42,542 nt of DNA from a virus, in IMG/VR virus record IMGVR_UViG_3300045988_144595, positions 1-42,542 of that record; one strand, 5' to 3'. The position numbers were made by a program, and so were the translations under genes. Under the pieces are notes generated by a model. That model did no database searches and was not told the origin of the DNA. It worked only from the letters and a program-made list of their open reading frames with translations. Within the stretch, counting starts at the first letter, position 1; every line of letters starts with the position of its first letter. Below, piece after piece: positions 1,277 through 41,958 of the stretch.

Positions 1277-1430
1277 CGAGATATATTCAATCGAAGACGC
1301 GCCGGCAGAAAGAGGTGGAACAGATTGGTCGGTCATCGCCGAACTGCGCGAAGATATGCGCCAAGACGACATCGACAGCCGGATGGACGGCTGGGAAAAA
1401 GATTACAACCGCATAGAACGGCCTTACTAA
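1239..1430 (+). CDS. Hypothetical small acidic early protein.
   Basis: 63-aa ORF rich in D/E. Overlaps the previous ORF by 38 nt. Confidence 0.4.
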   Translation: MTEAEQAQARRDSEIYSIEDAPAERGGTDWSVIAELREDMRQDDIDSRMDGWEKDYNRIERPY

Positions 1431-1443
1431 AAAAAACACTGAA

Positions 1444-1964: not shown

Positions 1965-1996
1965 CACCCCTATTTTTAACCAAATACTTATAAATT

Positions 1997-2893: not shown

Positions 2894-2927
2894 AACAAAA
2901 ATTAACCAAAAAAATAACGAAATCAAA

Positions 2928-3236
2928 ATGACAAGAATGAAAGCCCTCGCAAAGCAAATGTTAAATTGGGCGAACGCCGAAAAAGCAACCCACGCCGTGA
3001 TAGTTATCGCATCCGAAAAGATTGACGATAAAAAAGCTGACGGCATCCTGTGTATAGGAGGCACCAACGAGAACCTCGTTTTAGGCCTCAAGGCCGCTCT
3101 CAAAGAGGAGTCCGCCCTCAAGGGAGCCCTCGCCGAGGCCGTGAAGCAGCTCACCATAGACGAAGCCCTCGACCGACTGCTTGCCGAAACAGACGATGAC
3201 CCCGACACCGAAACCGCCAAAACACAGAAACAATGA
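2928..3236 (+). CDS. Hypothetical protein.
   Basis: 102-aa ORF with an acidic C-terminus, tightly packed between the SSAP and the exonuclease. Confidence 0.55.
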   Translation: MTRMKALAKQMLNWANAEKATHAVIVIASEKIDDKKADGILCIGGTNENLVLGLKAALKEESALKGALAEAVKQLTIDEALDRLLAETDDDPDTETAKTQKQ

Positions 3237-4177
3237 AACGCACACGACTGACATTCACTGACCGCGACCAGTGGCTCGCAGCTCGCACGCAGGGCATCGG
3301 TGCGAGCGAAGTCGCGACCATAGTCGGCCTCAATCCGTGGGAAACTCCTTACCAGCTTTGGAGACGCAAGACCGGACTGGATGCGCCGAAGCCCGAAAAT
3401 ACAGCTATGGCCACCGGCCATATTCTCGAGGACGGAGTCGCGCAGTTTTGGGCACGCGCGACAGGGCGCGAAATCATACGCAACAGCCGCACCGACTTTA
3501 TGTTTGTAGACGCGCAACATCACGAATTGCGCGTATCGCCCGACCGCACATATTGGCTCGGCGGAATGCGTAACGATGACAACAAAGGCATTCTTGAATG
3601 CAAGACCACGCGCCTTGTCATAGACCAAGACGACATACCGCGTCACTGGTTTGTGCAAGTGCAAATGAATCTCGGAGTGGCAGGATACACGCAAGGCAGC
3701 CTCGCCTGGCTTTCCGCAGCGAAAGGCTTCGAATTTGGCTATCGCGACCTGCAATTTGTGCCGGAGTTTTACGAGTGGCTCAAGCACGAGACACTGCGCT
3801 TTTGGCACGACAATGTACTTGGAGGAGTAGAGCCTCCTGCCGTATCGCCGCAGGACGTAATACTCAAGTACGACCATAGCACCGCCGGGCTGACGGCCAC
3901 CGCCGACGAAGACACCTACCGCGCATATTGCGACCTCAAGGAGCTGCGCCGCGAGATTGACGCCTTAGAGGAGCGCAAGGCCGACCTCGAGGGCAAGCTC
4001 AAGGCAGCATTTAAGGACGCTGAGGCGATGGCTTACAACGGAGAGACCATCGCGACATGGCGCTCGCCCAAGCCCACTCGCCGCTTCGACACCAAACGCT
4101 TCCAAGCCGACTACCCGGATATGGCCGATGATTATTACATCGAGACGCAAGGCGCACGCAGACTGCTGCTCAAATAA
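3233..4177 (+). CDS. YqaJ-like viral recombinase exonuclease (PD-(D/E)XK).
   Basis: GIGASEVATIVGLNPWETPYQLWRRKTG, HILEDGV, SPDRTY...ILECKT motifs. Confidence 0.88.
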   Translation: MKRTRLTFTDRDQWLAARTQGIGASEVATIVGLNPWETPYQLWRRKTGLDAPKPENTAMATGHILEDGVAQFWARATGREIIRNSRTDFMFVDAQHHELRVSPDRTYWLGGMRNDDNKGILECKTTRLVIDQDDIPRHWFVQVQMNLGVAGYTQGSLAWLSAAKGFEFGYRDLQFVPEFYEWLKHETLRFWHDNVLGGVEPPAVSPQDVILKYDHSTAGLTATADEDTYRAYCDLKELRREIDALEERKADLEGKLKAAFKDAEAMAYNGETIATWRSPKPTRRFDTKRFQADYPDMADDYYIETQGARRLLLK

Positions 4178-4179
4178 AA

Positions 4180-4368
4180 ATGATTACCATCAGTAACTAC
4201 GACCGCGACCGCGCCGCTGCCTACATCGAAGCCTACGCCGAGACACTGGCAGCGGCTGCGCGGAGCAGCGCCAAGGCAGCCAACCGCCGCCGTATAGCAC
4301 TGCTGCTCGCGCGCAAGTTACGCCGCCGACCCGACGGGAAAACATCAGACCGCAATGCCCGAAAATAA
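4180..4368 (+). CDS. Hypothetical small basic protein.
   Basis: 62-aa ORF in operon context. Confidence 0.4.
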   Translation: MITISNYDRDRAAAYIEAYAETLAAAARSSAKAANRRRIALLLARKLRRRPDGKTSDRNARK

Positions 4369-5218
4369 AGGATGGATTAAACTACACCGCCGGCTGCTCG
4401 ATTGGGAGTGGTACAGCGACACCAACATGGTGCGCCTATTCCTGCACCTGCTGCTCAAGGCCAACAGCAGCGACCGCCGCTGGCAAGGCCGCGAAGTGCC
4501 GAAAGGTAGCCTGGTGACATCACGAGCAACGCTCGAAGCCGAGACCGGGCTGTCGCAAAAGACAATCCGCACCTGCCTTGCGCGACTTATAGCCACCGGG
4601 GAAATCGAGGTCGAGGCGACCAACCGATTTAGCCTTATAACTATTTGTAATTTCGATAATTACCAAGAGTCAGAGCAAGGCGAGCGGCCAACTGGCGGCC
4701 AAGTAAACGGCCAACAAACGGCCAACCAAACGGCCAAGTTAAAAGGTTATGCAAATACCAATGAAACAAGTGATTGCGAAGCTGAAAAAGAAACGAGCGG
4801 CCAAGTAAATGCGCAACAAACGGCCAACCAAACGGCCACACTTAAAGAATATAATAATATATATCTTGTTGTTGCTGATGCGCGCACGCGCGAGGAATTG
4901 ACTGCAGGGGACTTTTTGGCTAAACACTTCGGAAGTCGCGCCGCCATCGAACAAGCATGCATGGCGCTCCACATTACCGAAGCTGATTACCGCTCACTTG
5001 CAGCCGAGACCGCGAACGAATGGGAGCTCACCTGCGAACCGCCGCACGAAACATATACGGCAGCGGCGAAGCATCTCATTAATCAAATCCGCAAGAAAGC
5101 AGCCGCACAGAGCAGCCGACCGAGCGGACAGCCAAGCCGCCGCCGAGCATACAGCGCGGAAAGCCGCGAGGTCAACGACAGATGGAAAAATTCTAAATAC
5201 ACACCACCGAAAGAATAA
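4355..5218 (+). CDS. Replication initiator (winged-helix, DnaD/phage O-like) carrying an internal origin.
   Basis: GWIKLHRRLLDWEWYSD...SRATLEAETGLSQKTIRTCLARLIATGEIE wHTH-type N-terminus. Internal duplicated peptide GQVN(G/A)QQTANQTA(K/T)LK(G/E)Y encoded by the iteron clusters. Confidence 0.7.
   Translation: MPENKGWIKLHRRLLDWEWYSDTNMVRLFLHLLLKANSSDRRWQGREVPKGSLVTSRATLEAETGLSQKTIRTCLARLIATGEIEVEATNRFSLITICNFDNYQESEQGERPTGGQVNGQQTANQTAKLKGYANTNETSDCEAEKETSGQVNAQQTANQTATLKEYNNIYLVVADARTREELTAGDFLAKHFGSRAAIEQACMALHITEADYRSLAAETANEWELTCEPPHETYTAAAKHLINQIRKKAAAQSSRPSGQPSRRRAYSAESREVNDRWKNSKYTPPKE
4685..4839. repeat. Candidate origin iterons. CGGCCAA occurs at 4685, 4696, 4708, 4719 and 4731, and again at 4798, (4810 degenerate), 4821 and 4833. 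Spacing is 11-12 bp.
   Basis: Positions counted directly. Two clusters about 113 nt apart inside the initiator gene. Confidence 0.6.
4841..4875. other. AT-rich stretch next to the iterons (candidate DNA-unwinding element).
   Basis: CTTAAAGAATATAATAATATATATCTTGTTGTTG within otherwise GC-rich coding sequence. Confidence 0.5.
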
Positions 5219-5221
5219 AAA

Positions 5222-6001
5222 ATGGACTTACAAAGCATAATAAACCGCGTCACCGAGGGACGCACACTCCACGGAGTATGCCGAGGCAAGACCGCGACAT
5301 ACGACAATATGGGCAACGTACTGGCTTGCATCGAGGCAATCGGCAAGCAGTTCACAGACCGCTTCACGATTGACGACGACAACCGCTGGGCTTATAAGCA
5401 ATTCGCCAAGTGGGTAGCCGGAGACCCAACGATGCAGGCGCAGGACACTGCAGGAAACATCGTCACAGGCGACCTTTGCAAAGGCATATACATCAACGGG
5501 CGCACCGGCTCGGGCAAAAGCCTCGCGATGGCCGTAATGGCTCTTTTCGCCGAAGTCGACAGCCCGACCATATACGCAGGTGGAGACTTCCGCCTATTGC
5601 GCTGGCAGCCGCGAACCACCGCCGCGCAGATTTGGGACGAGGTCGCCACCGGCGCAGACGCCCTGCGAAAGTACACGAATATGCCGATACTTTGCATCCA
5701 AGACCTCGGTGCAGAGCCGGAGGGCGAAGCCGTGTACATGGGCGCACGCCGATTGCCGCTGCGCCAACTCATCGAGGCGCGAGGCGACCGAAACGACCTT
5801 ATAACGCTTTTTACAAGCAATTACGCACCCGATGACGAGCGCATCACCCGACTATATGGCGAGCGAGTAGCCAGCCGCCTCCGCGCAATGTGCAATATCC
5901 TCACCATCTCCGGCAAAGACCGCCGCAAATCACCGGTCGAAGCCGAAGCCACCGCGCAGATTTTTCCCGAAGCCGGACAAGATGATGGGTTGCCCTTCTA
6001 A
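5222..6001 (+). CDS. DnaC/IstB-like AAA+ ATPase (helicase loader).
   Basis: Walker A GRTGSGKS and Walker B ILCIQDLGAE. Directly follows the initiator. Confidence 0.8.
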   Translation: MDLQSIINRVTEGRTLHGVCRGKTATYDNMGNVLACIEAIGKQFTDRFTIDDDNRWAYKQFAKWVAGDPTMQAQDTAGNIVTGDLCKGIYINGRTGSGKSLAMAVMALFAEVDSPTIYAGGDFRLLRWQPRTTAAQIWDEVATGADALRKYTNMPILCIQDLGAEPEGEAVYMGARRLPLRQLIEARGDRNDLITLFTSNYAPDDERITRLYGERVASRLRAMCNILTISGKDRRKSPVEAEATAQIFPEAGQDDGLPF

Positions 6002-6012
6002 AAAGAACGACG

Positions 6013-6219
6013 ATGAAAAAGTTAAACGGCATTGTGCGTGACGGCAAATTCTACGAGGTTGTGGACAAAGATTTCCTTGGCTGTCAAGGATGTGCATTCA
6101 GCAACACGAGCTGCAAAGTCGTATGCCTGAGTTTTGAGGGCGATGTTATCTTCCGCCTCAATAAGCAAATCACTCAAAAGCTCAACGGCGAGAAACCGCT
6201 CAAAATTCGCCGAAAATGA
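6013..6219 (+). CDS. Hypothetical small Cys-containing protein.
   Basis: 68-aa ORF containing CQGCAFSNTSCKVVC. Confidence 0.45.
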   Translation: MKKLNGIVRDGKFYEVVDKDFLGCQGCAFSNTSCKVVCLSFEGDVIFRLNKQITQKLNGEKPLKIRRK

Positions 6220-6602
6220 CCCGAGACGATAAAACACCCGGCCGCCGCCGAAAAACGCAACAGCGGTACTCGCAGACCCATTCAGCGCCATCGTCCGACT
6301 TGTTCACCGCGACAGTCCGCAGCGACCTCCGCGCCGAATGCGTCCGCGAGTACCGCTTCCACCCGACACGCCGCTGGCGCTTTGATTACGCAATACCAGC
6401 GCACCGCATCGCCATCGAAGTCGAGGGTGGCGTGTGGACTGGCGGACGGCACACATCACCAAAGGGCTTCCTTGGCGACATGGAAAAATACAATACCGCA
6501 ACACTCATGGGCTGGCGAGTATTCCGCACGACACCGCAGGAGCTGTACTCAGCATCCACCCTGGCCATGCTTCGCGAAGCCATCGGAAACAAACAAAATT
6601 AA
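6216..6602 (+). CDS. PD-(D/E)XK endonuclease, Vsr/DUF559-like (possible resolvase or repair nuclease).
   Basis: RFDYAIPAHRIAIEVEGGVW...GDMEKYNTATLMGWRVFR matches the D...E-x-E/K core with the C-terminal GW-V-R pattern of this fold. Confidence 0.6.
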   Translation: MTRDDKTPGRRRKTQQRYSQTHSAPSSDLFTATVRSDLRAECVREYRFHPTRRWRFDYAIPAHRIAIEVEGGVWTGGRHTSPKGFLGDMEKYNTATLMGWRVFRTTPQELYSASTLAMLREAIGNKQN

Positions 6603-6643
6603 ATGATTATGATATAATCAGATTTTTAATTAACTTTGTGGCA

Positions 6644-7378
6644 ATGAAAGACGAAAACAAAAACGACATAACGATACCCGACTTCGGCAACTTCGATGTT
6701 CCCGACCTCGACCTTGACAATTTCGACCTTGACCTTGACGCCGAGGCCGACACAGCCAACCGCTACATCAAGCCGCGACTCGTACCAATGAAAGAGCGGC
6801 AAATTATGTTCGAACACGCCGCAGCGCTTGCCAACGAAATAGACCTCACCGAGCGCAGCCGATATGACTGCATCGTATCCGGCTCGTTTTTTTTTGGCGA
6901 TTTTATCGAGGCTTTTATGGTGCGCAATAACTGCAAGACCGTGCGAATGACCATCACCACGCTGTCGCTTTCGCAAGAGAACGTGGACAGCCTCGCGACA
7001 CTGATGCAGAAAGGATATATCGACCGGCTCGACATGATAGTTAGCGATTATTTCTTCAGCCACGAACGGCACTGCTTGATACCATACATGTACCAGGAGC
7101 TGGACATCGACAACCGCTTCCAACTGGCGGTGGCTTTCGTCCACACCAAGACCGTGCACTTCGAGACGCTCGGCGGTAAAAAGATTGTAATCCACGGCTC
7201 GGCGAACCTCCGCAGTTCGGGAAATGTCGAACAATTCACTATCGAGGAGAACGCCGAATTATACGATTTTTATAACGAAGCGTTCAGCCCGATTATTGAA
7301 CGCTTTAAGACGATTAATCACACCGCGCCGCGCAAAACGCAGTGGGCGGACATAACAAAAAAACAATTCAAAAATTAA
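6644..7378 (+). CDS. Phospholipase-D-family (HKD) nuclease-like protein with an acidic N-terminal tail.
   Basis: VHTKTVHFETLGGKKIVIHGSANLRSSGN matches HxK...GSxN. Start moved to the ATG at 6644 because the longer ORF (6434) overlaps the previous gene. Confidence 0.6.
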   Translation: MKDENKNDITIPDFGNFDVPDLDLDNFDLDLDAEADTANRYIKPRLVPMKERQIMFEHAAALANEIDLTERSRYDCIVSGSFFFGDFIEAFMVRNNCKTVRMTITTLSLSQENVDSLATLMQKGYIDRLDMIVSDYFFSHERHCLIPYMYQELDIDNRFQLAVAFVHTKTVHFETLGGKKIVIHGSANLRSSGNVEQFTIEENAELYDFYNEAFSPIIERFKTINHTAPRKTQWADITKKQFKN

Positions 7379-7511
7379 GATTATGGCAGGAAGCACAGGA
7401 AGTGGAAAATGGGCAGCCGTGAACCTCATGCGCTCAACGCGAGCAAGGAAAAGACGCGGATACACCAAGGCACAGACATTCGATGACGTGCCGTTTTAAT
7501 CGAAAATAGAT

Positions 7512-8165
7512 ATGACAGAAAAGAACGTCGAACTCATCCAAAGTATCGTCTTGCCTATTGACGAGGTCGAAAATAACACCGGGCAAGTGCCGGGGTTGAA
7601 CGCGAACCCCCGTGAAATCACAATCACGGAATACAAAAAGCTCAAAAAATCGTTGGCAAAAAATCGTGGTTTTACCGCGCTAAACGAGCTCAAAGTATTT
7701 CCTTGGCATGGCAAGTGGATAACAATCGGAGGCAACATGCGCCTGCAGGCCATGCGCGAGCTGGGATGGGCGGAAGTAATCGCCAAACCACTGCCCGAAG
7801 ATACAGACATCGAAACGCTCAACCGATATATTCTTCTCGATAACGCGAGTTTTGGCAAATGGGACTTCGATTGTCTCGCCAACGAGTACGACATCAACGA
7901 TATTGTCGATGCCGCGATTAACATTCCGACACCGGAAGAAGACGAAGGTGAGAGGAGAGAAGAAGACGAAAAGGGTGGAGTTTGCCGACACTTCACTTTT
8001 GCTCCGGAACAAGTCGAATTTATGAAAGACGTAATCCGCAAGGCGCGCGAACAGATGCCGAAAGATATTGCACAACGCACAGACAACGCGAACCGCAACG
8101 GGAATGCATTATTTTATATTTTTTGCCAATGGGAAAGAAACTACAACAACCGGTCGAAAGTATAG
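7512..8165 (+). CDS. ParB-like nuclease-domain protein 1.
   Basis: ELKVFPWHGKWITIGGNMRLQAMRELGWAEVIAKPLP is a ParB/Srx N-terminal domain pattern. Confidence 0.8.
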   Translation: MTEKNVELIQSIVLPIDEVENNTGQVPGLNANPREITITEYKKLKKSLAKNRGFTALNELKVFPWHGKWITIGGNMRLQAMRELGWAEVIAKPLPEDTDIETLNRYILLDNASFGKWDFDCLANEYDINDIVDAAINIPTPEEDEGERREEDEKGGVCRHFTFAPEQVEFMKDVIRKAREQMPKDIAQRTDNANRNGNALFYIFCQWERNYNNRSKV

Positions 8166-12625: not shown

Positions 12626-12853
12626 ATGAGACGGAGACGCGAGGAACAGAACGACAGGCCGCAGTATCGCTGTCGCGATTGCGCACATTCGTACGATTGG
12701 AGTAATACTTCATTCCACGACGGCCTGCCGATACTTTGCCGCTGCCGCTTCGACAGCAGGAGCAAGCATGGGCTTTTTTGCAAGTTCTTAAACGACCGCC
12801 AGTGCGAGCATTTCACACTTCGCAGCGCCAATGCCGATGCCGCAATTAAATAA
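12626..12853 (+). CDS. Small Cys-rich (zinc-ribbon-like) protein.
   Basis: 75 aa with CRDC...CRC...C..H spacing. Confidence 0.4.
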   Translation: MRRRREEQNDRPQYRCRDCAHSYDWSNTSFHDGLPILCRCRFDSRSKHGLFCKFLNDRQCEHFTLRSANADAAIK

Positions 12854-14768
12854 CAATTACGACAAAAAGCACCTGCGCAACATCGCAGTGATATGCGCAC
12901 GCATCGACCGCATCTTTAACAAGGCTGCGGAAGAAGCTGCGCTTATCGGCGCGACCATTAAGGACGACCTCGGCGACAGAATTTTTTCTTTTCGCGATTA
13001 TCCGCAAACGCGCGAACAGGTTGAGGCACTGACCGAGGAGCTGCACGCTTCGCTCGAAACGACAATCGTTAATGGCATTGACGGTGCCTGGGCATTATCT
13101 AACGGAAAGAACGACGACCTCGTCCGCCGCGTTTTCGGGCGTAAGGCGGACGACCTGCCCGAAGCGCAGCGCCGCCGCTATTTTAATAACAACGCGCAGG
13201 CGCTCGAAGCATTCCTCGCACGCAAGACGCAAGGCCTCGGGCTTTCCGACCGCGTATGGCGATACACCGACGCCTTCAAGAACGAAATCGAACTGGGGCT
13301 CGACCTCGGCATCCGTTCGGGCAAAAGCGCCGCAGCCATGACGCGCGACCTGCGCCAATATTTGCAGCATCCCGATAAGCTATTCCGCCGAGTGCGAGAC
13401 GAACACGGCCTGCTCAAACTTTCCCAAGCAGCCAAAGACTTCCACCCGGGACGCGGAGTGTACCGCAGCTCGTATATGAACGCACGGCGCCTCGCCGCGA
13501 CCGAAACCAATATCGCGTATCGCACCGCCGACCACCTGCGCTGGCAAAAAATGGATTTCGTTGTCGGCATCGAAATCGTGCTGAGCAACAACCACACCAT
13601 CCGCCTCCAACCGGGCGAAAAGACCTCGGACTTGCCGGGGCAAATGCGAGCAGACGGAACGCCCAAGGCCAACGCGGTGCGCACGCTCACGGACATCTGC
13701 GACACACTCGCAGGACGATACCCAAAGGACTTCAAGTTTACGGGCTGGCATCCGCATTGCCGCTGCCGCGCCGTCACCATCCTCAAAACTGAGGAGGAGA
13801 TGGCACGCGACACCAAGCGCATCCTTGACGGCAGGCAGCCGTCGGCGGACAGCGCCAACGCCGTCACCGATACGCCCGAAGCATTCAAGGGCTGGGTGGA
13901 GAATAACCGCGACCGCATCGCCAACGGCCACTCGCTGCCGTACTTCATTCGCGACAATGCCAATTATACCGGCATCACCGCCAAGCAGGCACGCACATCA
14001 TCGACAACGCTCGACATCGCCGCCGAGCGCCACGCCAAGCGCACCGCCAAAAACGTATCGAGCATGCCAACAACACTTGATGACTTACGGGAAGAATATA
14101 GCGTTGCGTTTCGGGATGCAAATGAATCAGAATTTTATAACGGAGCAGCCGCCAAACTTGATTATCTTTCTGTAAAGCGTCAAGTAAACGAAGCTTTGTC
14201 TGATGTCGGCATTACAGATATGGAAACGCCAAGATTATACATTGAAGGGAATGGCCATTTTTCCATTTCTTTCCAAGGCTACCTCAGAAGGGATGATTTT
14301 CTTTTAAGACGCGATTTTTACGACCGGGGAAATGATGGAATTATGGTCGAGCATTCTCTCTTTGAACTTCCGTCTCACGCACAAGGGAAGGGAGTTTCAA
14401 AAAAGATATTAGGCATTTTTTTTGAGCAATACAAACGCATGGGCGTAGTCGAAATAAGAGTGTGTGCGAATATAGATGTGGGAGGATATACGTGGGCTCG
14501 ATACGGCTTCTGTGCGTATGATAAAAGGGAGGCGCTACAGGCAATCCGAAAGAAAGCGCTGACTGCGGAGGAATTCCAAGAAGCTCGCTCCATTGTAGAT
14601 GGTTACTATAAAAAAACCGGCTTATCAAAAAAAGAGCCATTCCCGATGTATCTAATCGCAGATAAGCCGTGGGGGAAAAAGGCACTTCTCAATTCAAGCT
14701 GGCAGGGAGTATTGAGCCTCAAAAATCCTGCGCATGTTGCACGATTTGAAAAGTATTTAAGGAGTTGA
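12831..14768 (+). CDS. MuF/SPP1-gp7-like head morphogenesis protein fused to a C-terminal GNAT acetyltransferase-like domain.
   Basis: MuF core: ATETNIAYRTADH...FTGWHPHCRCRAVTILK. C-terminus: LFELPSHAQGKGVSKKILGIFFEQYKRMGVVEIRVCANIDVGGYTWARYGF aligns with GNAT motif A and the beta5-alpha4 region. Confidence 0.85.
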   Translation: MPMPQLNNNYDKKHLRNIAVICARIDRIFNKAAEEAALIGATIKDDLGDRIFSFRDYPQTREQVEALTEELHASLETTIVNGIDGAWALSNGKNDDLVRRVFGRKADDLPEAQRRRYFNNNAQALEAFLARKTQGLGLSDRVWRYTDAFKNEIELGLDLGIRSGKSAAAMTRDLRQYLQHPDKLFRRVRDEHGLLKLSQAAKDFHPGRGVYRSSYMNARRLAATETNIAYRTADHLRWQKMDFVVGIEIVLSNNHTIRLQPGEKTSDLPGQMRADGTPKANAVRTLTDICDTLAGRYPKDFKFTGWHPHCRCRAVTILKTEEEMARDTKRILDGRQPSADSANAVTDTPEAFKGWVENNRDRIANGHSLPYFIRDNANYTGITAKQARTSSTTLDIAAERHAKRTAKNVSSMPTTLDDLREEYSVAFRDANESEFYNGAAAKLDYLSVKRQVNEALSDVGITDMETPRLYIEGNGHFSISFQGYLRRDDFLLRRDFYDRGNDGIMVEHSLFELPSHAQGKGVSKKILGIFFEQYKRMGVVEIRVCANIDVGGYTWARYGFCAYDKREALQAIRKKALTAEEFQEARSIVDGYYKKTGLSKKEPFPMYLIADKPWGKKALLNSSWQGVLSLKNPAHVARFEKYLRS

Positions 14769-29543: not shown

Positions 29544-30617
29544 ATGACCAAAATAAACTACAAATCAGATTTCGACTTTATTCTCACCTTGCGTGATGCG
29601 CAAGGCAACGACATTGGCTTCCCAAAATTCAACTGGGAGGCGCGTTTTTGGACTTTCTCGCCGATGTGCGCAATGACAGCCTCATGCCACGATGGCGAGT
29701 GCGTCAACTGCTTTAACGATAACGGCAAAATCCACATCGTTTTTAATGCGCCGACCTTGGGCTGCAGACAGCTGCGTGTCGAATTGGTGACGCACCGCGA
29801 AAACGATATTTACCCCGATGGCGAGCGCACGCTGTACACACCGGACGTTCTCGACATTGAGCTCGTCAGCGGAAAGGGCGATGCGGAGGACGTCAACGCC
29901 GATATTGTTTTCCCTGCGACCGGGACGGCGAAAGTCCTGCCAAGGATTGAAGTCCGTGTGTGCCGAGATAAAAACGTTGACGGCAAAGACCCAACAAATA
30001 ATGGTCGTGCCTACTTGCGCTTGCTTAACGCACAACCGTATTTGGATGCAGGATACAAACCTATTTTGTTACGTAAATGCGTGCGCAAGCAGCAGTACCG
30101 CAAAAAAGGAGGAGATGATAACCGATGGGACGTGCACACAAAAGGCTGGCATATACGCGGAAGTCAGGAAACTTTGCGCTTGACGCCAACGCAGCTCGGC
30201 AGCTTTGACGACAACATCGAACACATTGTGGCGATTACCGAGGACGAATTCTTTAATTTCGCCAGTATAAACTACTCCTTAAAAGCCATTGATTTTGTTA
30301 AGCCACATCCTCCGAAATTCAATGGCGTCGAATGGCCAAACCCGAACGACATCGTTGTATCATGGGGTACTCGTCGTATACGCATATACGATGACGACGG
30401 CAGCGAAGATGGCAGCGCTTCAATCAACGCACCAATTCGCTTCAAGTTCGGCATAGCCTTTCAAAAAGACTCGAACTTCGACAAAACGCAGCTCAATTTG
30501 CCGATTAGCGAAATCGTTTCTAATATAGCGACATTTTCGGTTCTTTTTAATGGGTCACAGACTTCCATCGACAAGAAAGACGCGACAAATGCAGATTGTT
30601 ACCGCTTTGGATATTAG
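29544..30617 (+). CDS. Hypothetical structural protein.
   Basis: 357-aa ORF in the tail region. Confidence 0.5.
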   Translation: MTKINYKSDFDFILTLRDAQGNDIGFPKFNWEARFWTFSPMCAMTASCHDGECVNCFNDNGKIHIVFNAPTLGCRQLRVELVTHRENDIYPDGERTLYTPDVLDIELVSGKGDAEDVNADIVFPATGTAKVLPRIEVRVCRDKNVDGKDPTNNGRAYLRLLNAQPYLDAGYKPILLRKCVRKQQYRKKGGDDNRWDVHTKGWHIRGSQETLRLTPTQLGSFDDNIEHIVAITEDEFFNFASINYSLKAIDFVKPHPPKFNGVEWPNPNDIVVSWGTRRIRIYDDDGSEDGSASINAPIRFKFGIAFQKDSNFDKTQLNLPISEIVSNIATFSVLFNGSQTSIDKKDATNADCYRFGY

Positions 30618-30630
30618 CCAAACAAAAAAA

Positions 30631-30707
30631 GCGGTTCGTTACACGAGCCGCCTATCTCGCTGTTCGTCACACGAGCAGCCTATACCGTGGTTCGTCACAC
30701 GAGCCAC
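30631..30707 (+). repeat. Three tandem 21-nt hairpins with a 28-nt period and compensatory stem changes.
   Basis: GCGGTTCG-TTACA-CGAGCCGC (30631-51), GCTGTTCG-TCACA-CGAGCAGC (30659-79), GTGGTTCG-TCACA-CGAGCCAC (30687-707). The spacers are CTATCTC and CTATACC. Confidence 0.85.
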
Positions 30708-30751
30708 GACGCAACAAAGATATATATTTTTTTCTAACAGCACAAAAGAAT

Positions 30752-31087
30752 ATGCTAAAAATAACAGATAAAGGACAATACAGAGAGATTACAGCCACTT
30801 CTGGCTACCTGCACCGCATCGGCACGGAGGTATACGCAAAGTCATGCATAATGCTACCGACAGATAAGGAGGAAGATTTTGAAGAAGTGGCAGCAGTGCC
30901 GAAATACACAGAGAGGGACTACAAGGAACGCGTTGAACGCCTTATCCGAGAACGCTACTCCGTTGCGGACGAGCTGGGCATACTGCGCCAGCGCGACACC
31001 AAGCCCGAAGAATATGCCGAGTATTACGCCTTTGCAGAAGCCTGCAAGGCGAAAGCACGCGCCGAAATCGCCGCGAACGGAAACTAA
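30752..31087 (+). CDS. Hypothetical protein (XkdW/tail-fibre-assembly-like C-terminus, weak).
   Basis: 111 aa from MLKITDK. Contains ERYSVADELGILRQRDTKPEEYAEYYAFAEACK. Confidence 0.45.
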   Translation: MLKITDKGQYREITATSGYLHRIGTEVYAKSCIMLPTDKEEDFEEVAAVPKYTERDYKERVERLIRERYSVADELGILRQRDTKPEEYAEYYAFAEACKAKARAEIAANGN

Positions 31088-34900: not shown

Positions 34901-35591
34901 CACCGGCATCGAGCGCATACGCATAACACCGAATGCATTGCCAAGTGCGACAGCTGCAGGGACGACCGAGATACTCGTAATCAAGGCGTACGGAGGTAAT
35001 GCCGAGTATACGGGCGAAACAGACACCGAGGTGTCGTTTACTTATCAAGCCGCCTTCGACGACAGCTCCGAAATACAGGTCTATGACAACATGCTATCGG
35101 CATACGTTGAGTATGACATTGCCGAGGCTTCGACGCGCATCGACCTGCGTCAAATACAGTATACAATCAACCTCAAGAACGGAACTGGTCAGACAGTCTC
35201 GCCGACGACCATCCGATGCTCGGCAAGGGCATACAGGCAGGTCGGCAGTGCGTGGGACTTCGTTACGAGCGCATCCATATCGGACGGACAGCTCGAAGTG
35301 ACGCTGCCAAAGGCCGGAAGATACCGAATTTGGATTACCCTCGAAGTATACGCGCCGGCAGTATCCGCGTGGAGTGGACTGATAGGTATATCCGCGCAAG
35401 GCATCACCGCGAAAACGGCAAAGGAGAAATTCTTTGCTGCAAAGGACGGAATTATGGCAATATATAATAGCAATTACTTTCGCTTCGACTCCACCGAGGG
35501 CTTTATTGTTCGCGTTGGTAATTACGGAATGCTTATTAATTCAGCCGGCATCAAAAAGATGACGGACGGCAAGACATGGCAAGATTTTTAA
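31971..35591 (+). CDS. Tail-associated lysin/baseplate hub protein (Tal-like) with a long C-terminal fibre or host-recognition region.
   Basis: 1206 aa. The N-terminus MKIYSADKTLLLDVEVDDNSYRNRSIMGEDNLILYYSL...GRTYTLLRPQ resembles the prophage tail endopeptidase/Tal family. Confidence 0.7.
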   Translation: MKIYSADKTLLLDVEVDDNSYRNRSIMGEDNLILYYSLAEHVEVPVGAYCVFEGRTYTLLRPQDIKMQHTRNFVYTVTFSADQDKAKTWKFRNTVDGRLRFSLTAKPHEHLQMFVDNMNRRDSGWTIGECITDTEKLVTYDHDYCYTALSKIASAFETEYEINGKQVSLHKVEYNKSNPLALAYGKGNGLKPGVGRSNSGDTPAIEILYVQGGDRNIDRSKYPEDENLRATSNGCLLLPVGQTLAYDGEHFEDEQGFVAANARHYKVDNQGLSITNTDRTPSSYAEDSLDRSDDYPKRVGTISSVVAVDAEQHFYDFVDASIPQNLDYSKCIIGDEKMSVIFQSGELAGREFDVKYYHEAVGNKAARRFEIIPQEIDGVTMPGGTFLPKADDTYAVFGCMLPQAYICDNDSKSGASWGMFRAAVKYLFDNEDTKLTFTGELDGIWAKKDWTNIGAKIRLGGFVRFTDARLAPNGVLIRITGIKDYINNPHAPKIELSNETVSGSVSTTIKTIKSATEVSIDESHRDAIQFTKRRFRDAKETMEMLEAALADDFSSRINPIAVETMQMLVGDESLQFRFVKSVDNPTPAAHSVAWNAETKKLTAQAGIIQHLTLGIKTLSAEHKPTEYRYWSVAAFESAALEDASAKYFLYIRAARQSISSPGAATFRLETTPHALSDGNYYWLLVGILNSEYDGERSFATLYGYTEILPGRITTERITNTDGDAYFDLQASAFKLKDRLDFNTAGDGELRLKGTLVQSRGGEVETPLGCFRGEYNATYTYYYGDDVTYQPEADQPTSTYRCISTTPISNVWPTDTSKWQVIAQGVAGEPGAPGIHPAAVYRGYFRTGQTYYGNTNRVDIVKSGSTYYIAKTDAPNGMGGFSGTAVAPPNPTYWLNFGASFDSVATALLLAENANIANLIFRNERLESSAQTNGVPNFYLDGLQNVASFAAGNVRFDGASAKIGWMYIDGRDLVGIDNTGIERIRITPNALPSATAAGTTEILVIKAYGGNAEYTGETDTEVSFTYQAAFDDSSEIQVYDNMLSAYVEYDIAEASTRIDLRQIQYTINLKNGTGQTVSPTTIRCSARAYRQVGSAWDFVTSASISDGQLEVTLPKAGRYRIWITLEVYAPAVSAWSGLIGISAQGITAKTAKEKFFAAKDGIMAIYNSNYFRFDSTEGFIVRVGNYGMLINSAGIKKMTDGKTWQDF

Positions 35592-35630
35592 CCGAGTTTT
35601 AACCGAATTATTAACCGAGTTTTTAACCGA
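35588..35630. repeat. Four direct copies of TTAACCGA at 11-12 bp spacing, between the Tal stop and the endolysin start.
   Basis: Copies start at 35588, 35599, 35611 and 35623. Confidence 0.8.
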
Positions 35631-36799: not shown

Positions 36800-36830
36800 T
36801 TTGCATTATATAATATATTATATAACTTTG
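36800..36830 (+). promoter_or_regulatory. Promoter: -33 TTTG (36800-03) and -7 TAACTTTG (36823-30), overlapped by a perfect 20-bp AT palindrome (36806-25).
   Basis: 19-nt spacing between the boxes. The palindrome TTATATAATATATTATATAA equals its own reverse complement. Confidence 0.55.
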
Positions 36831-36890: not shown

Positions 36891-37229
36891 ATGGCAACAG
36901 CAAAGAAAGCTCAGTATTTTATCAGCTTGTATGTTCTCGACCAAAACGACCGAGTGGCTGAAGACGTTTTCGACTGGCAACGATACGAGACGGAAGAACA
37001 GGCGCTGGATGCGGCGCATGACCTTGAGGGGGACTCCCGAACCGCATACAACATGGCGAGAAAATACACCGGCACGCCTTACCTTATCAATTTCGAAGTG
37101 AACAAGCAGGTCGGAATATTTGACGCCGATGGCGACCTGTCGCAAGAGGACTACACGGAGTCCCTCGGCGAAATCGAATACAGATACAGCGAGGATGGCA
37201 AATGCCTTGACGAGCACTGCACGCTTTAA
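36891..37229 (+). CDS. Hypothetical protein (moron cassette gene 1).
   Basis: 112-aa ORF downstream of its own promoter. Confidence 0.55.
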   Translation: MATAKKAQYFISLYVLDQNDRVAEDVFDWQRYETEEQALDAAHDLEGDSRTAYNMARKYTGTPYLINFEVNKQVGIFDADGDLSQEDYTESLGEIEYRYSEDGKCLDEHCTL

Positions 37230-37265
37230 TAATCACCCCCCCAAAAAAAACAAACAACACATAAT

Positions 37266-37622
37266 ATGAATAGCTCAACAATCCACGCAACAGAACATCA
37301 CCCGAACCTTTCGAGGGTAGAACAATATGTCAAATTCTTACACGACAACTTCGACAGTTGCGCTAAAAAACGTCAAGCGGTAGACCCGGAACTCGACGAA
37401 ATGACATGGTACTGCACCTACGTAAGCAGATACACTCACATGATACTCGAGCGCCTGGCGGTAATGCCAGAGAGAGACCACCTCGAGTTTTTGGCCGCGA
37501 TAGGCTCTGGCAAAGAAAATATCGACATCGAGATTTTACCCGAACACCGCGAGTGGCAACGCACAGCCGACGAAGCCTTGCGTGCACAATTTAGCAAAGC
37601 CGCATTATATATAATAGTATGA
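37266..37622 (+). CDS. Hypothetical protein (moron cassette gene 2).
   Basis: 118-aa ORF. Confidence 0.55.
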   Translation: MNSSTIHATEHHPNLSRVEQYVKFLHDNFDSCAKKRQAVDPELDEMTWYCTYVSRYTHMILERLAVMPERDHLEFLAAIGSGKENIDIEILPEHREWQRTADEALRAQFSKAALYIIV

Positions 37623-38038
37623 CGCAATACAGCACCACAAAAGACAATGGCGAGGTCACCATGCGTGACCTTGCCACCGGCGTCACCCTCCAGTGGATGG
37701 AGGGTGAACCGAACACACTCCGCACCACATCAATGGGCAACACGCGCAGAAGCGAGTACATCCGCATCGCGCAGGCGATGACCACCTACGCCTACGACCA
37801 TGGCTTGCTTGGCGAGACGACACCAAGCGTACTGATTAAGCAGGCCGCTCGGCAAGCGGTCGGACAACAAGTGCGACAAGCGCGAGAAACAAAGGGCTTG
37901 ACCGGACAGCAGCTCGCCGAACGCTGCGGACTGGCTCAGCCGCACATCGCACGCATCGAAGCCGGTCGATACAACGTGACCACCGACATCCTCGCGATTA
38001 TTGCGCACGCGCTCGGGACGGAAATCATCGTTAAGTAA
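37619..38038 (+). CDS. Two-domain protein with a C-terminal XRE-type HTH. The HTH is paralogous to that of 15062..15814.
   Basis: RQARETKGLTGQQLAERCGLAQPHIARIEAGRYNVTTDILAIIAHALG. Confidence 0.7.
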   Translation: MTQYSTTKDNGEVTMRDLATGVTLQWMEGEPNTLRTTSMGNTRRSEYIRIAQAMTTYAYDHGLLGETTPSVLIKQAARQAVGQQVRQARETKGLTGQQLAERCGLAQPHIARIEAGRYNVTTDILAIIAHALGTEIIVK

Positions 38039-38101: not shown

Positions 38102-38329
38102 TGGTGCGTTTTCGGTGCGCCCCAAACGCACCACCGCCGTAAAATATTCATTATTAATCAATCACGCCAATTTTGCGTTTTTCGTCTGCAAAAGCCCCGA
38201 CAAAAACAAACGCACACCGATAGCAGTCGAGCGCACGCAGGTAGCGGCTTTGCAAGCGCGAAGTTAGTAATTTTTTCCGAAAAAGTGCGCGTATATGCCT
38301 GCCTTATGCTAATTTTGTGGTGCGTTTTT
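38102..38329. repeat. GGTGCGTTT motif copies in both orientations upstream of int (candidate arm-type, operator or attP region).
   Basis: TGGTGCGTTT at 38102-11 is inverted with AAACGCACCA at 38124-33. AAACGCAC at 38208-15. GGTGCGTTTTT at 38319-29. Confidence 0.35.
38310..38317 (+). promoter_or_regulatory. -7 box TAATTTTG upstream of the integrase gene.
   Basis: Matches TAnnTTTG, 49 nt before the ATG at 38366. Confidence 0.4.
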
Positions 38330-38365
38330 GTTGCGCGGAAAAAACAGCCCTCAACCAATATAGAC

Positions 38366-39499
38366 ATGCCGAAAAAAAAATACTCCAAAGAATGCGTCTA
38401 CCTCCGTCAGCGTAGCCGAGCTAATGGACTTATAGCGCTATATCTCGACATCAACACTGGAGGCCGACGCCGAAGTGAATATTTGCGGCTCTACCTCGTG
38501 CAGGAGAACACGCGCGAGGACAGAGTCAAAAACCGCGAGACGCTCAAAGTTGCGAACGCGATAAAGGCGCAGCGCATCATCGACGTTCAGCGCGAGAAGC
38601 AGGGGCTCGCCAGTAGCGGTGAACATGTATTATTTTTTGATTTTGCCGAAGCGTTTGCAAAAAAGCACACGAATGCACAGGGCGAAGTGTCTGCGCCATG
38701 GCAAAGTACGATTATCAGACTACACACATACGAGCGTCATGGAGATATTACTTTTTCGCAAATCACGCAAAAATGGGTCGAAGGCTTTCGCCGACACCTT
38801 TCTATGTCGCTATCGCGGAGGGGGAAAAACGGGCAACCATTGTCGCCCAACTCGGCTAAGTTATATTTTACCAAGCTCAAGGCCATACTCAACAAAGCCG
38901 TGGCGCAAGGCATCATCAGCAAGTCTCCGGCCTCCGCCGTCGGCAATATTAAAGGAGTAGAGACCACACGACAGTACCTCACCATTGACGAGCTGAGCAG
39001 ACTTGCCGAGACACCGTGCCGCAACAGCATACTGCGCAGAGCTTTCCTTTTTTCCTGCTTGACCGGCCTCAGATATAGTGATGTTTCCACGCTTACGTGG
39101 GGAGAGGTTCATCGGCAGGGCGATTTTACGCGCATCGTTTTCGCACAAAGAAAGACCGGCGGCCTCGAGTACCTCGACATTTCGCCACAGGCCGTGATGC
39201 TGATGGGCGACCGAGCCGAACCACAAGCCCTGGTCTTTGCCGGGTTGCCAATATTAACAAGCGCCAATTATACGCTAAGCGCATGGAGCCGCCTTGCCGG
39301 CATCGACAAACATATTACATTTCATTGCGCTCGGCATACCTTCGCGGTTATGATGCTCGACCTCGGCGTTGACATATACACAGTCAGCAAGCTGCTCGGA
39401 CACCGCAACCTTGCGACAACGCAGATATACGCAAAAGTGTTGGACAAGAAGAAGCAGGCCGCAGCATTGCTGATACCGAACATCCTACCTAACGAATAG
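38366..39499 (+). CDS. int: Tyrosine site-specific integrase (Bacteroidota phage-integrase type).
   Basis: C-terminal catalytic region ITFHCARHTFAVMMLDLG...LLGHRNLATTQIYAKV (R, HxxR, H, Y). Start set at MPKKKYSK. Confidence 0.9.
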   Translation: MPKKKYSKECVYLRQRSRANGLIALYLDINTGGRRRSEYLRLYLVQENTREDRVKNRETLKVANAIKAQRIIDVQREKQGLASSGEHVLFFDFAEAFAKKHTNAQGEVSAPWQSTIIRLHTYERHGDITFSQITQKWVEGFRRHLSMSLSRRGKNGQPLSPNSAKLYFTKLKAILNKAVAQGIISKSPASAVGNIKGVETTRQYLTIDELSRLAETPCRNSILRRAFLFSCLTGLRYSDVSTLTWGEVHRQGDFTRIVFAQRKTGGLEYLDISPQAVMLMGDRAEPQALVFAGLPILTSANYTLSAWSRLAGIDKHITFHCARHTFAVMMLDLGVDIYTVSKLLGHRNLATTQIYAKVLDKKKQAAALLIPNILPNE

Positions 39500-41446: not shown

Positions 41447-41477
41447 TTTGTTGTTTAGAATATCTTCCTTACCTTTG
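41447..41477 (+). promoter_or_regulatory. Early rightward promoter: -33 TTTG (41447-50) and -7 TACCTTTG (41470-77).
   Basis: 19-nt spacing. 83 nt upstream of the ATG at 41560. Confidence 0.55.
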
Positions 41478-41559: not shown

Positions 41560-41958
41560 ATGACAAAGGAAGAATTTGAGACGCGCACAGGCGCAAGCGT
41601 AACATCTGGAGAATACGCAGGAATAGAACAGATATACCTCTACGCAAAGAATATGGAAAAAGACGAGTTCTGCAGCAACCGGAAAACAAAGACCGGCCGC
41701 AGGGCGATAATGGCTGCCCTTGTCAAACAGATATATACCCTGGAAGAAAAAAACCACAATACAGGACTCATCAACGCCGAGCTCAAGGAAAAACAAGATG
41801 GAATTATCGACTTCCTGGTTGGAAGTCCGGATGCCGGCGAGATGCGGCAAAAAGCCATAGAACTCCTTGGCGACGAACGCGAATATATCCGCCGCAAGTG
41901 CGAGCGCAGCCTCCCACTTGATGACGAAGATAAAGCCGCGATACTTCGGCTACTATAA
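41560..41958 (+). CDS. Hypothetical first early protein (Cro position, no obvious HTH).
   Basis: 132-aa ORF. Confidence 0.6.
   Translation: MTKEEFETRTGASVTSGEYAGIEQIYLYAKNMEKDEFCSNRKTKTGRRAIMAALVKQIYTLEEKNHNTGLINAELKEKQDGIIDFLVGSPDAGEMRQKAIELLGDEREYIRRKCERSLPLDDEDKAAILRLL

Follow-up and report, generated by a model that had tools for sequence, protein, structure and literature searches.

In a phage of the Bacteroidota, a tandem array of three short hairpins is kept for its structure, through compensatory base changes, as it is in every related Bacteroidota phage that we found. Here we analyse this array within a 42,542-nt stretch of viral DNA (IMG/VR record IMGVR_UViG_3300045988_144595, positions 1 to 42,542; hereafter the window) and, with moderate confidence, interpret it as most likely the gene of a predicted small RNA of about 88 nt, encoded on the minus strand and antisense to the gap that follows a tail-fibre-like gene. 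The locus combines a conserved predicted promoter, three covarying hairpins, the geometry of a terminator and co-inheritance with the C-terminal domain of the fibre-like protein.

The array and its genomic setting

The window is assigned to a temperate Bacteroidota siphovirus with a host in that phylum. No gene of the window carries a Shine-Dalgarno sequence, and relatives of its capsid proteins were encountered only in phages of Porphyromonas, Riemerella and Cellulophaga. Read directly on the plus strand, positions 30631–30707 are GCGGTTCGTTACACGAGCCGC-CTATCTC-GCTGTTCGTCACACGAGCAGC-CTATACC-GTGGTTCGTCACACGAGCCAC, a 21-nt hairpin unit occurring three times with a period of 28 nt, which Tandem Repeats Finder reports as 30631–30705 (period 28, 2.7 copies, score 108). 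The core GTTCGTYACACGAGC has three matches in the whole window at two or fewer mismatches, all of them inside the array; shuffled windows contain a mean of 0.21 matches, and none of 100 reached three. The triple array is therefore present as a preliminary description of this DNA had it, and the details given there all match the sequence: the outer stems (GCGG/CCGC, GCTG/CAGC and GTGG/CCAC in hairpins 1, 2 and 3, respectively), one T·G pair in each hairpin, the 7-nt spacers, an A7 run abutting hairpin 1 and a T7 run about 20 nt off. Its three 21-nt extents stand, with the amendment that hairpin 3 can be extended by one C–G pair (30686/30708). Loops are of 3 nt, or of 5 nt when the closing U–A pair opens. 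The features of the locus, with minus-strand hairpins primed, are as follows.

29544–30617, plus strand: probable tail-fibre or receptor-binding protein of 357 aa, with a conserved N-terminal anchor domain (residues 1–124) and an exchangeable C-terminal part
30003–30772: module common to phage L024, comprising the fibre C-terminal half, the three hairpins and the predicted promoter (blastn, 73% identity)
30624–30711, minus strand: predicted small RNA of about 88 nt, 5′-hairpin 3′-GGUAUAG-hairpin 2′-GAGAUAG-hairpin 1′-U7, its 5′ end placed at about 30709–30712
30624–30630, plus strand: A7 run abutting hairpin 1
30624–30630, minus strand: the same run as a U7 tract, starting 6 nt past the TAG with which the convergent fibre-like gene ends
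30631–30651: hairpin 1, GCGGTTCGTTACACGAGCCGC on the plus strand; terminator hairpin of the predicted minus-strand RNA
30652–30658: spacer CTATCTC, GAGAUAG in the predicted minus-strand RNA
30659–30679: hairpin 2, GCTGTTCGTCACACGAGCAGC on the plus strand
30680–30686: spacer CTATACC, without G on the plus strand; GGUAUAG in the predicted minus-strand RNA
30686–30708: hairpin 3 in its extended form, CGTGGTTCGTCACACGAGCCACG on the plus strand; first hairpin of the predicted minus-strand RNA
30715–30722, minus strand: predicted −7 element TATCTTTG (TAnnTTTG; consensus from PMC7366714)
30727–30733, plus strand: T7 run, about 20 nt beyond hairpin 3
30743–30746, minus strand: predicted −33 element TTTG (CAAA on the plus strand), of the sigma-ABfr-type consensus
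30752–31087, plus strand: conserved small gene of 111 aa, divergent from the predicted small RNA promoter and presumed to be read, across the array, on one transcript with the fibre gene

The array occupies a non-coding gap of 134 nt (30618–30751) with plus-strand open reading frames on both sides, and starts 13 nt past the TAG stop codon (30615–30617) of the frame at 29544–30617. A longer frame, 30596–31087, is open through the array here; we rejected a coding reading and treat the array as non-coding because the same frame carries one to four stops in 10 of 12 relatives. A 22-codon minus-strand frame spotted by eye was dropped for its lack of conservation, as was a −1 frameshift site built from A7 and the hairpins, given that the TAG precedes A7 and the downstream frame is closed in relatives.

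Sequence comparison with Pfam, PHROG, PADLOC and the PDB returned no match for the 357-aa protein. Its N-terminal domain is common to proteins with collagen, BspA-LRR or DUF285 domains, a tblastn search of deposited phages gave only an N-terminal match (Dulem virus 40), and its structure model is all-beta with low confidence (pLDDT 64), matching nothing beyond generic Ig-like and pilin-like structures. The neighbouring genes showed no RNA-binding or nuclease domain and no PADLOC match. The small gene opens with ATG(C/A)TAAAAAT(A/C)ACAGA in all tail-module relatives.

The otherwise unrelated phage L024 shares a single substantial blastn match with the window, 30003–30772, and the product of the 357-aa gene is the only protein near the array that the two have in common. 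Both promoter boxes and the hairpins are kept in L024 though the small gene has decayed, and homologues of the small gene that directly follow other fibres have no array. The array and the C-terminal domain of the fibre are inherited together, as a single module. Two earlier suggestions lose ground here. What had been described as an accessory insert between Dit and Tal consists of regular tail-module members in relatives (the 357-aa gene, the array and the small gene), and a barrier that separates tail transcripts is unlikely, as the array accompanies the fibre C-terminal domain into a non-tail context in L024.

Compensatory change in related phages

All 13 distinct relatives recovered carry the array, as three hairpins in the same position. 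By stem sequence the arrays divide into four classes that bear no relation to one another (clades A, B, C and D; clade A comprises the window, L049 and L024) and have one architecture. Whole stems have been exchanged for unrelated ones with the three hairpins kept, which bears out the initial proposal that selection acts on pairing and not on sequence. Across 32 distinct hairpins, 90.9% of stem positions are paired compared with 61.3% in shuffles (0 of 500 as high), and 9 of 10 stem pairs have changes on both sides (covariation score of 0.77 versus 0.24). Covariation was counted on a gapless alignment of individual hairpins, and within clades, because MAFFT alignment of the full RNA across clades misaligns the hairpins. 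RNAalifold gives three hairpins on the minus strand for clades A and B.

The two strands fold differently well in different clades. The plus strand of the window (88 nt) forms exactly three hairpins at −42.9 kcal/mol (z = −8.1; equalled by 0 of 200 shuffles), and the minus strand forms three at −33.8 kcal/mol (z = −2.6). Throughout clade A, 100% of stem cells are paired on the plus strand versus 87% on the minus, each minus-strand hairpin having a C·A mismatch and each plus-strand hairpin a T·G wobble. The balance is the reverse in clade B (95% on the minus strand versus 91% on the plus) and clade C (99% versus 79%). Plus-strand hairpins of clade C contain one or two A·C mismatches each and fold at −1.6 to −9.7 kcal/mol, with one exception at −13.3 kcal/mol, and the polarity of non-Watson–Crick pairs in this clade is one-sided (18 G·U versus 0). 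Minus-strand hairpins fold in every clade, at −6.8 to −16 kcal/mol. In an unbiased scan, minus-strand triple arrays came from 11 loci of clades B, C and D; plus-strand ones came from the three loci of clade A and no others. The preliminary description had chosen the plus strand because of the conserved G–T pair; this choice is right for the window's own clade A and fails in the other three clades, in which the non-Watson–Crick pairs read A·C on the plus strand and G·U on the minus.

The predicted transcript and its alternatives

Promoters recognized by the Bacteroidota primary sigma factor, sigma-ABfr, have the consensus TAnnTTTG at −7 and TTTG at about −33, separated by an AT-rich spacer (PMC7366714); a sigma-70 promoter scan was set aside as irrelevant for a Bacteroidota host. 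The pattern TTTG-N18–22-TAnnTTTG has three matches on both strands of the 42.5-kb window, with 0.58 expected; one of them (30746 to 30715, minus strand) points into hairpin 3, and another precedes the repressor–integrase operon. The TA and TTTG of the −7 box are invariant in 13 of 13 relatives, with varying nn (TC, AC or CC) and a varying promoter spacer, and 12 of 13 have an exact TTTG −33 box at a distance of 17–20 nt from it. Within clades, the base of hairpin 3′ is a fixed distance from the −7 box, 6 nt in A and B and 9 nt in C and D. The single TAnnTTTG within 4.4 kb in L071 is the one at the array, and no relative has a plus-strand promoter upstream of hairpin 1. The predicted sigma-ABfr promoter is thus correctly placed upstream of hairpin 3′.

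At the other end, all 13 relatives have a U-rich run immediately after hairpin 1′, and a terminator scan called canonical minus-strand intrinsic terminators at the orthologous hairpin 1′ of L074 (9 bp, U7) and L071 (11 bp, U7). Applied to the window, the scan called neither its own hairpin 1′ with U7, on account of an internal C·A mismatch, nor any plus-strand terminator. We predict a Rho-independent terminator at the 3′ end of the minus-strand RNA; it is, like the promoter, a prediction from sequence. The plus strand after hairpin 3 reads GACGCAACAAAG, and plus-strand hairpins of relatives likewise lack a U-tract. With no U-tract 0–2 nt past a hairpin and no plus-strand call, the array is not a single plus-strand terminator, in agreement with the preliminary description. 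The A7 and T7 runs, taken at first for loose flanking features, have more definite places: A7 would be the U-tract of the predicted minus-strand terminator, and T7 falls in the AT-rich promoter spacer.

In the model that we favour, host RNA polymerase with sigma-ABfr would start from the −33 TTTG (30746–30743) and the −7 TATCTTTG (30722–30715), transcribe hairpins 3′, 2′ and 1′ in that order, and stop at hairpin 1′ and U7 (30630–30624), leaving 6 nt between the end of the RNA and the stop codon of the fibre-like gene, which runs towards it. Three stem-loops and two 7-nt purine-rich linkers would make up the product, about 88 nt in all. As its promoter is of the host housekeeping class, the RNA is probably made in the lysogen or early in infection. 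Its sequence would be the exact complement of the late mRNA in the region separating the fibre-like gene from the small gene, and that intercistronic region is expected to form the mirror-image hairpins noticed in the preliminary description. There is no consensus promoter between the flanking plus-strand genes, and the late mRNA, itself a postulated transcript, must therefore read through 30618–30751.

The RNA could act on this late transcript by duplex formation, by cleavage or decay, or by interfering with read-through. Such cis-antisense regulation is a possibility that we raise tentatively. Loop–loop kissing is typical of antisense RNAs, and loops of 3–5 nt are poor for it; a pure cis-antisense role would also leave unexplained the identical core of the three hairpins of one genome. 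Comparison of relatives gave no conserved single-stranded seed in the RNA, and a search for trans targets within the phage gave nothing above chance.

The main competitor to a minus-strand gene, which we consider unlikely, is an element that works only in the plus-strand mRNA, as a 3′-exonuclease barrier or processing site stabilizing the fibre segment or setting the ratio of upstream to downstream products. REP hairpins play such a role in the malE–malF operon of E. coli. The position of the array, just past a stop codon within a plus-strand operon, suits this reading, and as no promoter is dedicated to the downstream genes, the mRNA must contain the hairpins. In the window's clade, moreover, the plus strand folds better than the minus, by paired cells and, in the window itself, by z score, and its hairpins are perfect with a conserved G·U pair. 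The −7 and −33 boxes also sit in the leader of the small gene, so that a plus-strand role could account for some of their conservation. A function confined to the mRNA would nevertheless leave unexplained the invariant minus-strand boxes and the U-run after hairpin 1′; it is further at odds with the decay of the plus-strand hairpins in clade C, the lack of a U-tract after any plus-strand hairpin, and L024, in which the element is intact though its downstream partner gene is gone.

The internal sameness of the arrays raises a different question, that of function. Within a genome the three hairpins have a common core of inner stem and loop, with outer stems that differ, and between clades the core is wholly different; all three clade A units carry the same C-to-T change, despite a hairpin 2 that is recognizably orthologous between clades A and B. 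This pattern, together with the missing seed, would suit a three-site platform or decoy RNA, on either strand, for a co-evolving, sequence-specific hairpin-binding partner, for example an RNA-binding protein of the phage or a nuclease that the host uses in defence or processing. This reading, which can go with a minus-strand gene and would give it a function other than antisense, we rate as rather improbable. No neighbouring gene has an RNA-binding or nuclease domain, identical cores can also come from short-tract conversion or template switching between tandem quasi-palindromes, and the core class merely tracks the linked fibre C-terminal domain, as linkage alone predicts. We give a similarly low probability to a new class of phage small RNA, with identical-core hairpins kept alike by selection as docking sites for a sequence-specific partner. 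Were that so, the RNA would dock a protein of the phage or titrate a factor of the host, one of RNA-targeting defence or of processing, and the RNA and receptor-binding fibre head would be exchanged between phages as one cassette, linking host range to RNA-based counter-defence or regulation.

An element acting as DNA seems very unlikely to us, whether the palindromes would serve a dimeric DNA-binding protein as three operators, form a cruciform or mark the module boundary as a recombination hotspot. Three similar imperfect palindromes do lie beside a promoter, an arrangement that recalls tripartite phage operators, the family as a whole has mismatches of either polarity, and the array is inside a segment exchanged between phages. 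Half-site recognition, however, does not predict outer stems that differ and yet stay complementary at the levels of pairing and covariation given above, and the one-sided polarity within clades, as in clade C, points to single-stranded RNA. The breakpoints of homology to L024, at 30003 and 30772, are away from the array.

Searches beyond the relatives bear on the remaining alternative, that of a known repeat. A two-unit pattern of the clade A core (periods of 28–88 nt) run over 185,579 species genomes and a metagenome collection matched only L024 and its copies; of the four cores, the genome-wide scan covered that of clade A, in paired units. The locus had no match among 50,697 deposited phages (megablast and blastn). 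Rfam, proposed earlier as a check, gave no match at the gathering threshold for the window and six relatives, and a relaxed scan gave only noise (best E = 0.1). Among viral contigs, a single-unit core scan returned 24 chance singletons and L024, scans with the clade B and clade C cores returned chance singletons only, and protein-pattern searches returned only L024/L057 and N-terminal-only relatives, the latter without an array downstream. The array breaks metagenome assemblies.

A 28-nt hairpin unit in tandem, beside a protein gene on a mobile genome, might suggest a CRISPR-repeat mimic (an RNA anti-CRISPR or mini-array), a host REP/BIME or a type III toxin–antitoxin RNA repeat, which we judge most improbable as a group given that the two-unit clade A scan met no CRISPR array or dispersed copies, that Rfam and the PADLOC comparison of neighbouring genes are empty, and that, unlike ToxI, the repeats come after their conserved partner gene and read from the other strand. 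We rejected each in turn: the dispersed host repeat, which the preliminary description had named as the finding that would overturn it, because all three copies in the window are in the array and the two-unit pattern met no related array in the 185,579 genomes; the CRISPR forms, in line with that description, because array spacers are of 7–8 nt and the clade A core is in no CRISPR-like array of the genome and metagenome scans; and the toxin–antitoxin form because the predicted RNA is opposite to both neighbours, which have no PADLOC, Pfam or PHROG nuclease match.

Relation to known small RNAs and repeats

The predicted minus-strand RNA probably represents a new family of a known kind. To our knowledge, the regulatory RNAs of Bacteroidota phages are almost unexplored. 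If the prediction holds, the locus would be a compact prophage small RNA gene that fits its promoter, three hairpins and terminator into 125 nt, is conserved in gut Bacteroidales siphoviruses under four classes of sequence, and travels with the exchangeable C-terminal domain of a fibre-like protein. It would offer a clean natural case of two processes, the turnover of whole stems under a preserved structure and the concerted evolution of hairpins in tandem. For arrays of this sort in Bacteroidota phages, the promoter consensus to bear in mind is that of sigma-ABfr and not that of sigma-70.

Like the array, REP/BIME elements of enterobacteria are tandem palindromes found right after a stop codon in an operon. 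Their hairpins can stabilize mRNA, and a single host genome has hundreds of dispersed REP copies, whereas the array is single-copy and found only in one phage gene context. Phage CRISPR-repeat mimics and ToxI repeats resemble it as structured tandem RNA units of about 28–36 nt on phage genomes. Cognate CRISPR arrays have spacers of about 30–40 nt, and in ToxIN-like systems the RNA repeats lie upstream of the endoribonuclease toxin gene, on the same strand. The array differs from both in that its unit sequence is replaced wholesale between clades with the structure kept, and in that no cognate CRISPR repeat and no ToxN-like or Cas6-like partner gene was found for it.

A likeness in form is offered by ColE1 RNA I, an antisense RNA of about 100 nt with three consecutive stem-loops and a target that has the complementary three. 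RNA I controls plasmid replication, and its loops start kissing complexes. Its loops are of 6–7 nt and its hairpins unrelated to one another, whereas the predicted RNA has loops of 3–5 nt and one common core.

Among the small RNAs of Bacteroides, those classed as ‘high-confidence’ are defined by a sigma-ABfr promoter and a Rho-independent terminator (PMC7366714). The predicted RNA resembles the canonical intergenic and the DonS-like cis-antisense small RNAs of Bacteroides in promoter, terminator and size range, and differs from them in being phage-encoded and in having no Rfam family and a three-repeat-hairpin architecture that is not described there (PMC7366714). Lambda OOP RNA and P22 sar RNA are similar in size (about 70–90 nt), in belonging to temperate phages, in having their own host-type promoter and intrinsic terminator, and in being convergent with an upstream protein gene and ending at its 3′ end. 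The predicted RNA has no sequence relation to either and would stop 6 nt short of the coding sequence, with no overlap; it would consist of three near-identical tandem hairpins, be encoded in the tail module instead of the immunity region, and be expressed from a sigma-ABfr-type promoter.

The hairpin array and its covariation

The array lies in a 134-nt gap between two plus-strand ORFs, 29544–30617 (stop codon 30615–30617), which encodes a tail-fibre-like protein of 357 amino acids, and 30752–31087, referred to here as the small gene. The sequence at 30631–30707 agrees with the preliminary description of three 21-nt hairpins, 7-nt spacers and flanking A7 and T7 runs.

Elements of the array (plus-strand sequence)
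30631 onward: hairpin 1, 21 nt, GCGGTTCG-TTACA-CGAGCCGC
middle of the array: hairpin 2, 21 nt, GCTGTTCG-TCACA-CGAGCAGC
last of the array: hairpin 3, 21 nt, GTGGTTCG-TCACA-CGAGCCAC
spacers: CTATCTC (hairpins 1/2) and CTATACC (hairpins 2/3)
30624–30630: A7 run, abutting hairpin 1
30727–30733: T7 run, about 20 nt past hairpin 3

Tandem Repeats Finder reports a period of 28 nt and 2.7 copies, and all three copies of the hairpin core in the 42.5 kb (0.21 expected) lie within the array. The plus strand folds into exactly these three hairpins (z = −6.6 over 161 nt; z = −8.1 over 88 nt). A coding reading through ORF 30596–31087 was rejected because in 10 of the 12 relatives one to four stops interrupt the same frame; that this ORF is open across the array is an accident of the window genome.

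Relatives, found by tracing homologues of the 357-aa protein to their contigs (L-numbers), carry three hairpins at the same position wherever the contig reaches past the stop codon of the fibre-like gene, and their hairpin sequences form four classes, clades A–D. When 32 distinct hairpins are aligned without gaps, 90.9% of the stem cells are paired; shuffles give 61.3%, and 0 of 500 reach the observed level. Nine of the ten stem pairs have changed on both sides and the covariation score is 0.77 versus 0.24, with slid controls far lower. Selection on pairing, already proposed from the window, is thus well supported by these sequence comparisons. Metagenome contigs of four relatives (L051, L066, L067 and L072) end within the array; short-read assembly evidently fails at the repeat, and the element may be concealed in databases as a result.

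Strand polarity and minus-strand signals

Non-Watson–Crick stem positions are nearly all transition-type and one-sided within each clade. The conserved T·G pair had been taken to indicate a plus-strand structure, which holds for clade A; across the family the picture is reversed.

Hairpin classes: members; plus-strand stem-loop; G·U pairs; paired cells
Clade A: window, L049, L024; GGTTCG-TYRCA-CGAGCC; plus 8, minus 0; plus 100%, minus 87%
Clade B: L052–55, L064, L067, L074; GGCTCG-...-CGAGCC; plus 1, minus 6; plus 91%, minus 95%
Clade C: L056, L068, L069, L071–73; GGATGAGG-ANA-CCCCAYCC; plus 0, minus 18; plus 79%, minus 99%
Clade D: L213; GAGAGC-NNN-GCTCTC

Minus-strand hairpins are stable in all clades (−6.8 to −16 kcal/mol), and the plus-strand hairpins of clade C are weak (−1.6 to −9.7 kcal/mol, with one exception at −13.3). 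When triple tandem hairpins with stems of 7 bp or more were sought in an unbiased scan, 11 loci (clades B, C and D) had the array on the minus strand and only the three clade A loci had it on the plus strand. This clade-specific wobble polarity is an unusual feature of the element. A plus-strand stabiliser or processing barrier, although it fits clade A, fails in clade C and leaves the minus-strand signals out of account, making it an unlikely explanation. Action at the DNA level, as operators, a cruciform or a recombination hotspot, is very improbable: it predicts neither complementary outer-stem variation among the sites of one genome nor one-sided wobbles, and homology breakpoints fall outside the array.

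The window is a temperate siphovirus with genes for terminase, portal, major head protein, a 1595-aa tape measure protein, a Dit-like tail protein, a 1206-aa Tal-like protein, an amidase endolysin, an HTH repressor-like protein and integrase. Its host is a member of the Bacteroidota: a Shine–Dalgarno sequence is absent from every gene in the window, deposited relatives of the capsid protein are confined to Porphyromonas, Riemerella and Cellulophaga phages, and one head protein has a Bxa-like PHROG match. The host group matters for promoter reading, as promoters in Bacteroidota do not follow the sigma-70 pattern: sigma-ABfr, their primary sigma factor, reads TAnnTTTG centred at −7, with a second element, TTTG, at about −33 and an AT-rich spacer in between (PMC7366714). 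The consensus TTTG-N18–22-TAnnTTTG has three full matches in the window versus 0.58 expected.

Promoter consensus matches in the window
30746 to 30715, minus strand: predicted promoter, full match, TTTGTGCTGTTAGAAAAAAATATATATCTTTG
36800–36830, plus strand: upstream of operon 36891–38038, whose last gene is HTH repressor-like and precedes the integrase gene (38285–39499)
41447–41477, plus strand: upstream of ORF 41560–41958

The minus-strand −7 box is kept in 13 of 13 relatives, its TA and TTTG invariant and its nn variable; an exact −33 TTTG is found in 12 of the 13, 17–20 nt from the −7 box, across a spacer whose sequence drifts. From the −7 box to the base of hairpin 3′ (primes denote minus-strand counterparts) the distance is 6 nt in clades A and B and 9 nt in clades C and D. 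No relative has a plus-strand −7 box upstream of hairpin 1, and 4.4 kb of L071 contain just one such box, that on the minus strand. A U-run follows hairpin 1′ in every relative, completing a conserved geometry of predicted promoter and terminator. A terminator scan made minus-strand calls in L074 (GTGGCTCGTGTTACGAGCCAC-TTTTTTT) and L071 (11-bp stem and U7); the window has hairpin 1′ and U7, yet received no call in the simple scan owing to a C·A mismatch in hairpin 1′. The A7 and T7 runs therefore stand as located but take on new roles, as putative terminator U-tract and AT-rich promoter spacer, respectively, of the minus strand.

Several other features of the window were recorded. The coding (plus) strand has a strong A-over-T excess throughout (AT skew up to 0.48) at a GC content of about 53%. 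A 645-aa protein (12831–14768) has head-morphogenesis (minor head protein) PHROG matches and a strong 'Bxa ADP-ribosyl transferase' PHROG match; it is possibly an effector delivered with the capsid. The long tandem repeats near the window's start (139–301 and 624–918; units of 18 nt and 54 nt) are coding, as six-codon units of the V-Y-G-x-A-x type inside ORFs 108–395 and 452–967 (a hexapeptide-repeat-like protein), so that an iteron reading was rejected. Four direct copies of (A/G)TTTTTAACCGA at 35584–35630 fill the interval from the Tal-like gene stop (35591) to the start of the endolysin gene (35647), a possible site of regulation for the lysis genes.

Linkage to the fibre-like protein and distribution

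The 357-aa protein is modular. Residues 1–124 are 72–95% identical among all tail-module homologues and form a domain common to proteins with collagen, BspA-LRR or DUF285 domains; residues 125–357 are 59–98% identical in clades A and B and only 24–40% in clades C and D. In L024 (IMGVR_UViG_3300013426_000045), an otherwise unrelated phage, the homologue joins a different N-terminal domain (25% identity) to a clade A/B C-terminal part (63–69%), and DNA shared with the window is essentially only 30003–30772, at 73% identity. There, in the region 886–7958 near a contig end, the fibre-like gene and hairpin module are flanked by a DNA methyltransferase/RusA/RecT/exonuclease cluster on one side and a DnaN-like clamp gene on the other, a setting outside any tail module; the small gene has a decayed start, while the hairpins and the two promoter boxes remain intact. 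No array was found downstream of fibres sharing only the N-terminal domain. The hairpin class thus tracks the C-terminal domain, and this domain, the hairpins and the promoter are co-inherited, exchanged as a single module, which speaks against a function bound to the tail operon itself.

This exchange also speaks against the earlier view of the region as accessory material inserted between Dit and Tal; in L056, L064, L068 and L074 the same gene order belongs to the regular tail module. In L052–L055, L069 and L073 the fibre gene, array and small gene are the final phage genes, an arrangement seen in clade B and in some prophages of clade C. Varied host or defence genes follow, among them those for a type I restriction-modification system, a KAP NTPase and a mechanosensitive channel; tail-module order therefore varies between relatives.

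The element is not represented in Rfam, the window and six relatives giving no match at gathering thresholds and noise only at relaxed ones, and deposited phage genomes hold no match to the locus. A two-unit pattern of the clade A core allowing periods of 28–88 nt, which also brings CRISPR arrays within reach, found nothing related in 185,579 species (one genome each) and, in the metagenome collection, only two copies of a single phage, L024, recovered earlier by the viral-contig scan. These clade A scans reject a host REP-like repeat and a mimic of any sampled CRISPR repeat and, with domain searches, leave the known classes, ToxI included, highly improbable.

The predicted small RNA

The promoter and terminator positions delimit one transcript.

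about 30711 to 30624, minus strand: predicted RNA, about 88 nt

Its predicted fold has three hairpins (−33.8 kcal/mol, z = −2.6), which RNAalifold recovers in clades A and B. As the units are near-identical palindromes, the RNAs of clades B and C have an alternative fold, a single long extended hairpin. We consider it probable that the element is a self-contained minus-strand small RNA gene, which would be read by the host RNA polymerase. Its product would be antisense to the late mRNA between the two cistrons, a stretch that would necessarily bear the mirror-image hairpins; we infer its production, its timing and its action on the sense transcript. A cis-antisense mechanism is a tentative proposal, to which we give about half the credence of the gene itself. 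A search of the phage for trans targets gave none.

Counting against this gene and mechanism are the C·A mismatch in each clade A minus-strand hairpin, the small loops and the identical core of one genome's three hairpins despite differing outer stems. The last implies either concerted evolution, three concertedly evolving hairpins being a further unusual feature, or a sequence-specific partner binding each hairpin. An alternative reading built on such a partner seems distinctly unlikely, and annotation and domain searches of the window revealed no recognisable candidate gene.

Without homology to any of them, the small RNA gene as proposed resembles three known systems. Its sequence has, as predictions, the two features used to define Bacteroides 'high-confidence' small RNAs, a sigma-ABfr promoter and an intrinsic terminator (PMC7366714); in shape it recalls ColE1 RNA I, a three-stem-loop antisense RNA; and in its putative mode of action the closest likeness would be to lambda OOP, a phage cis-antisense small RNA.
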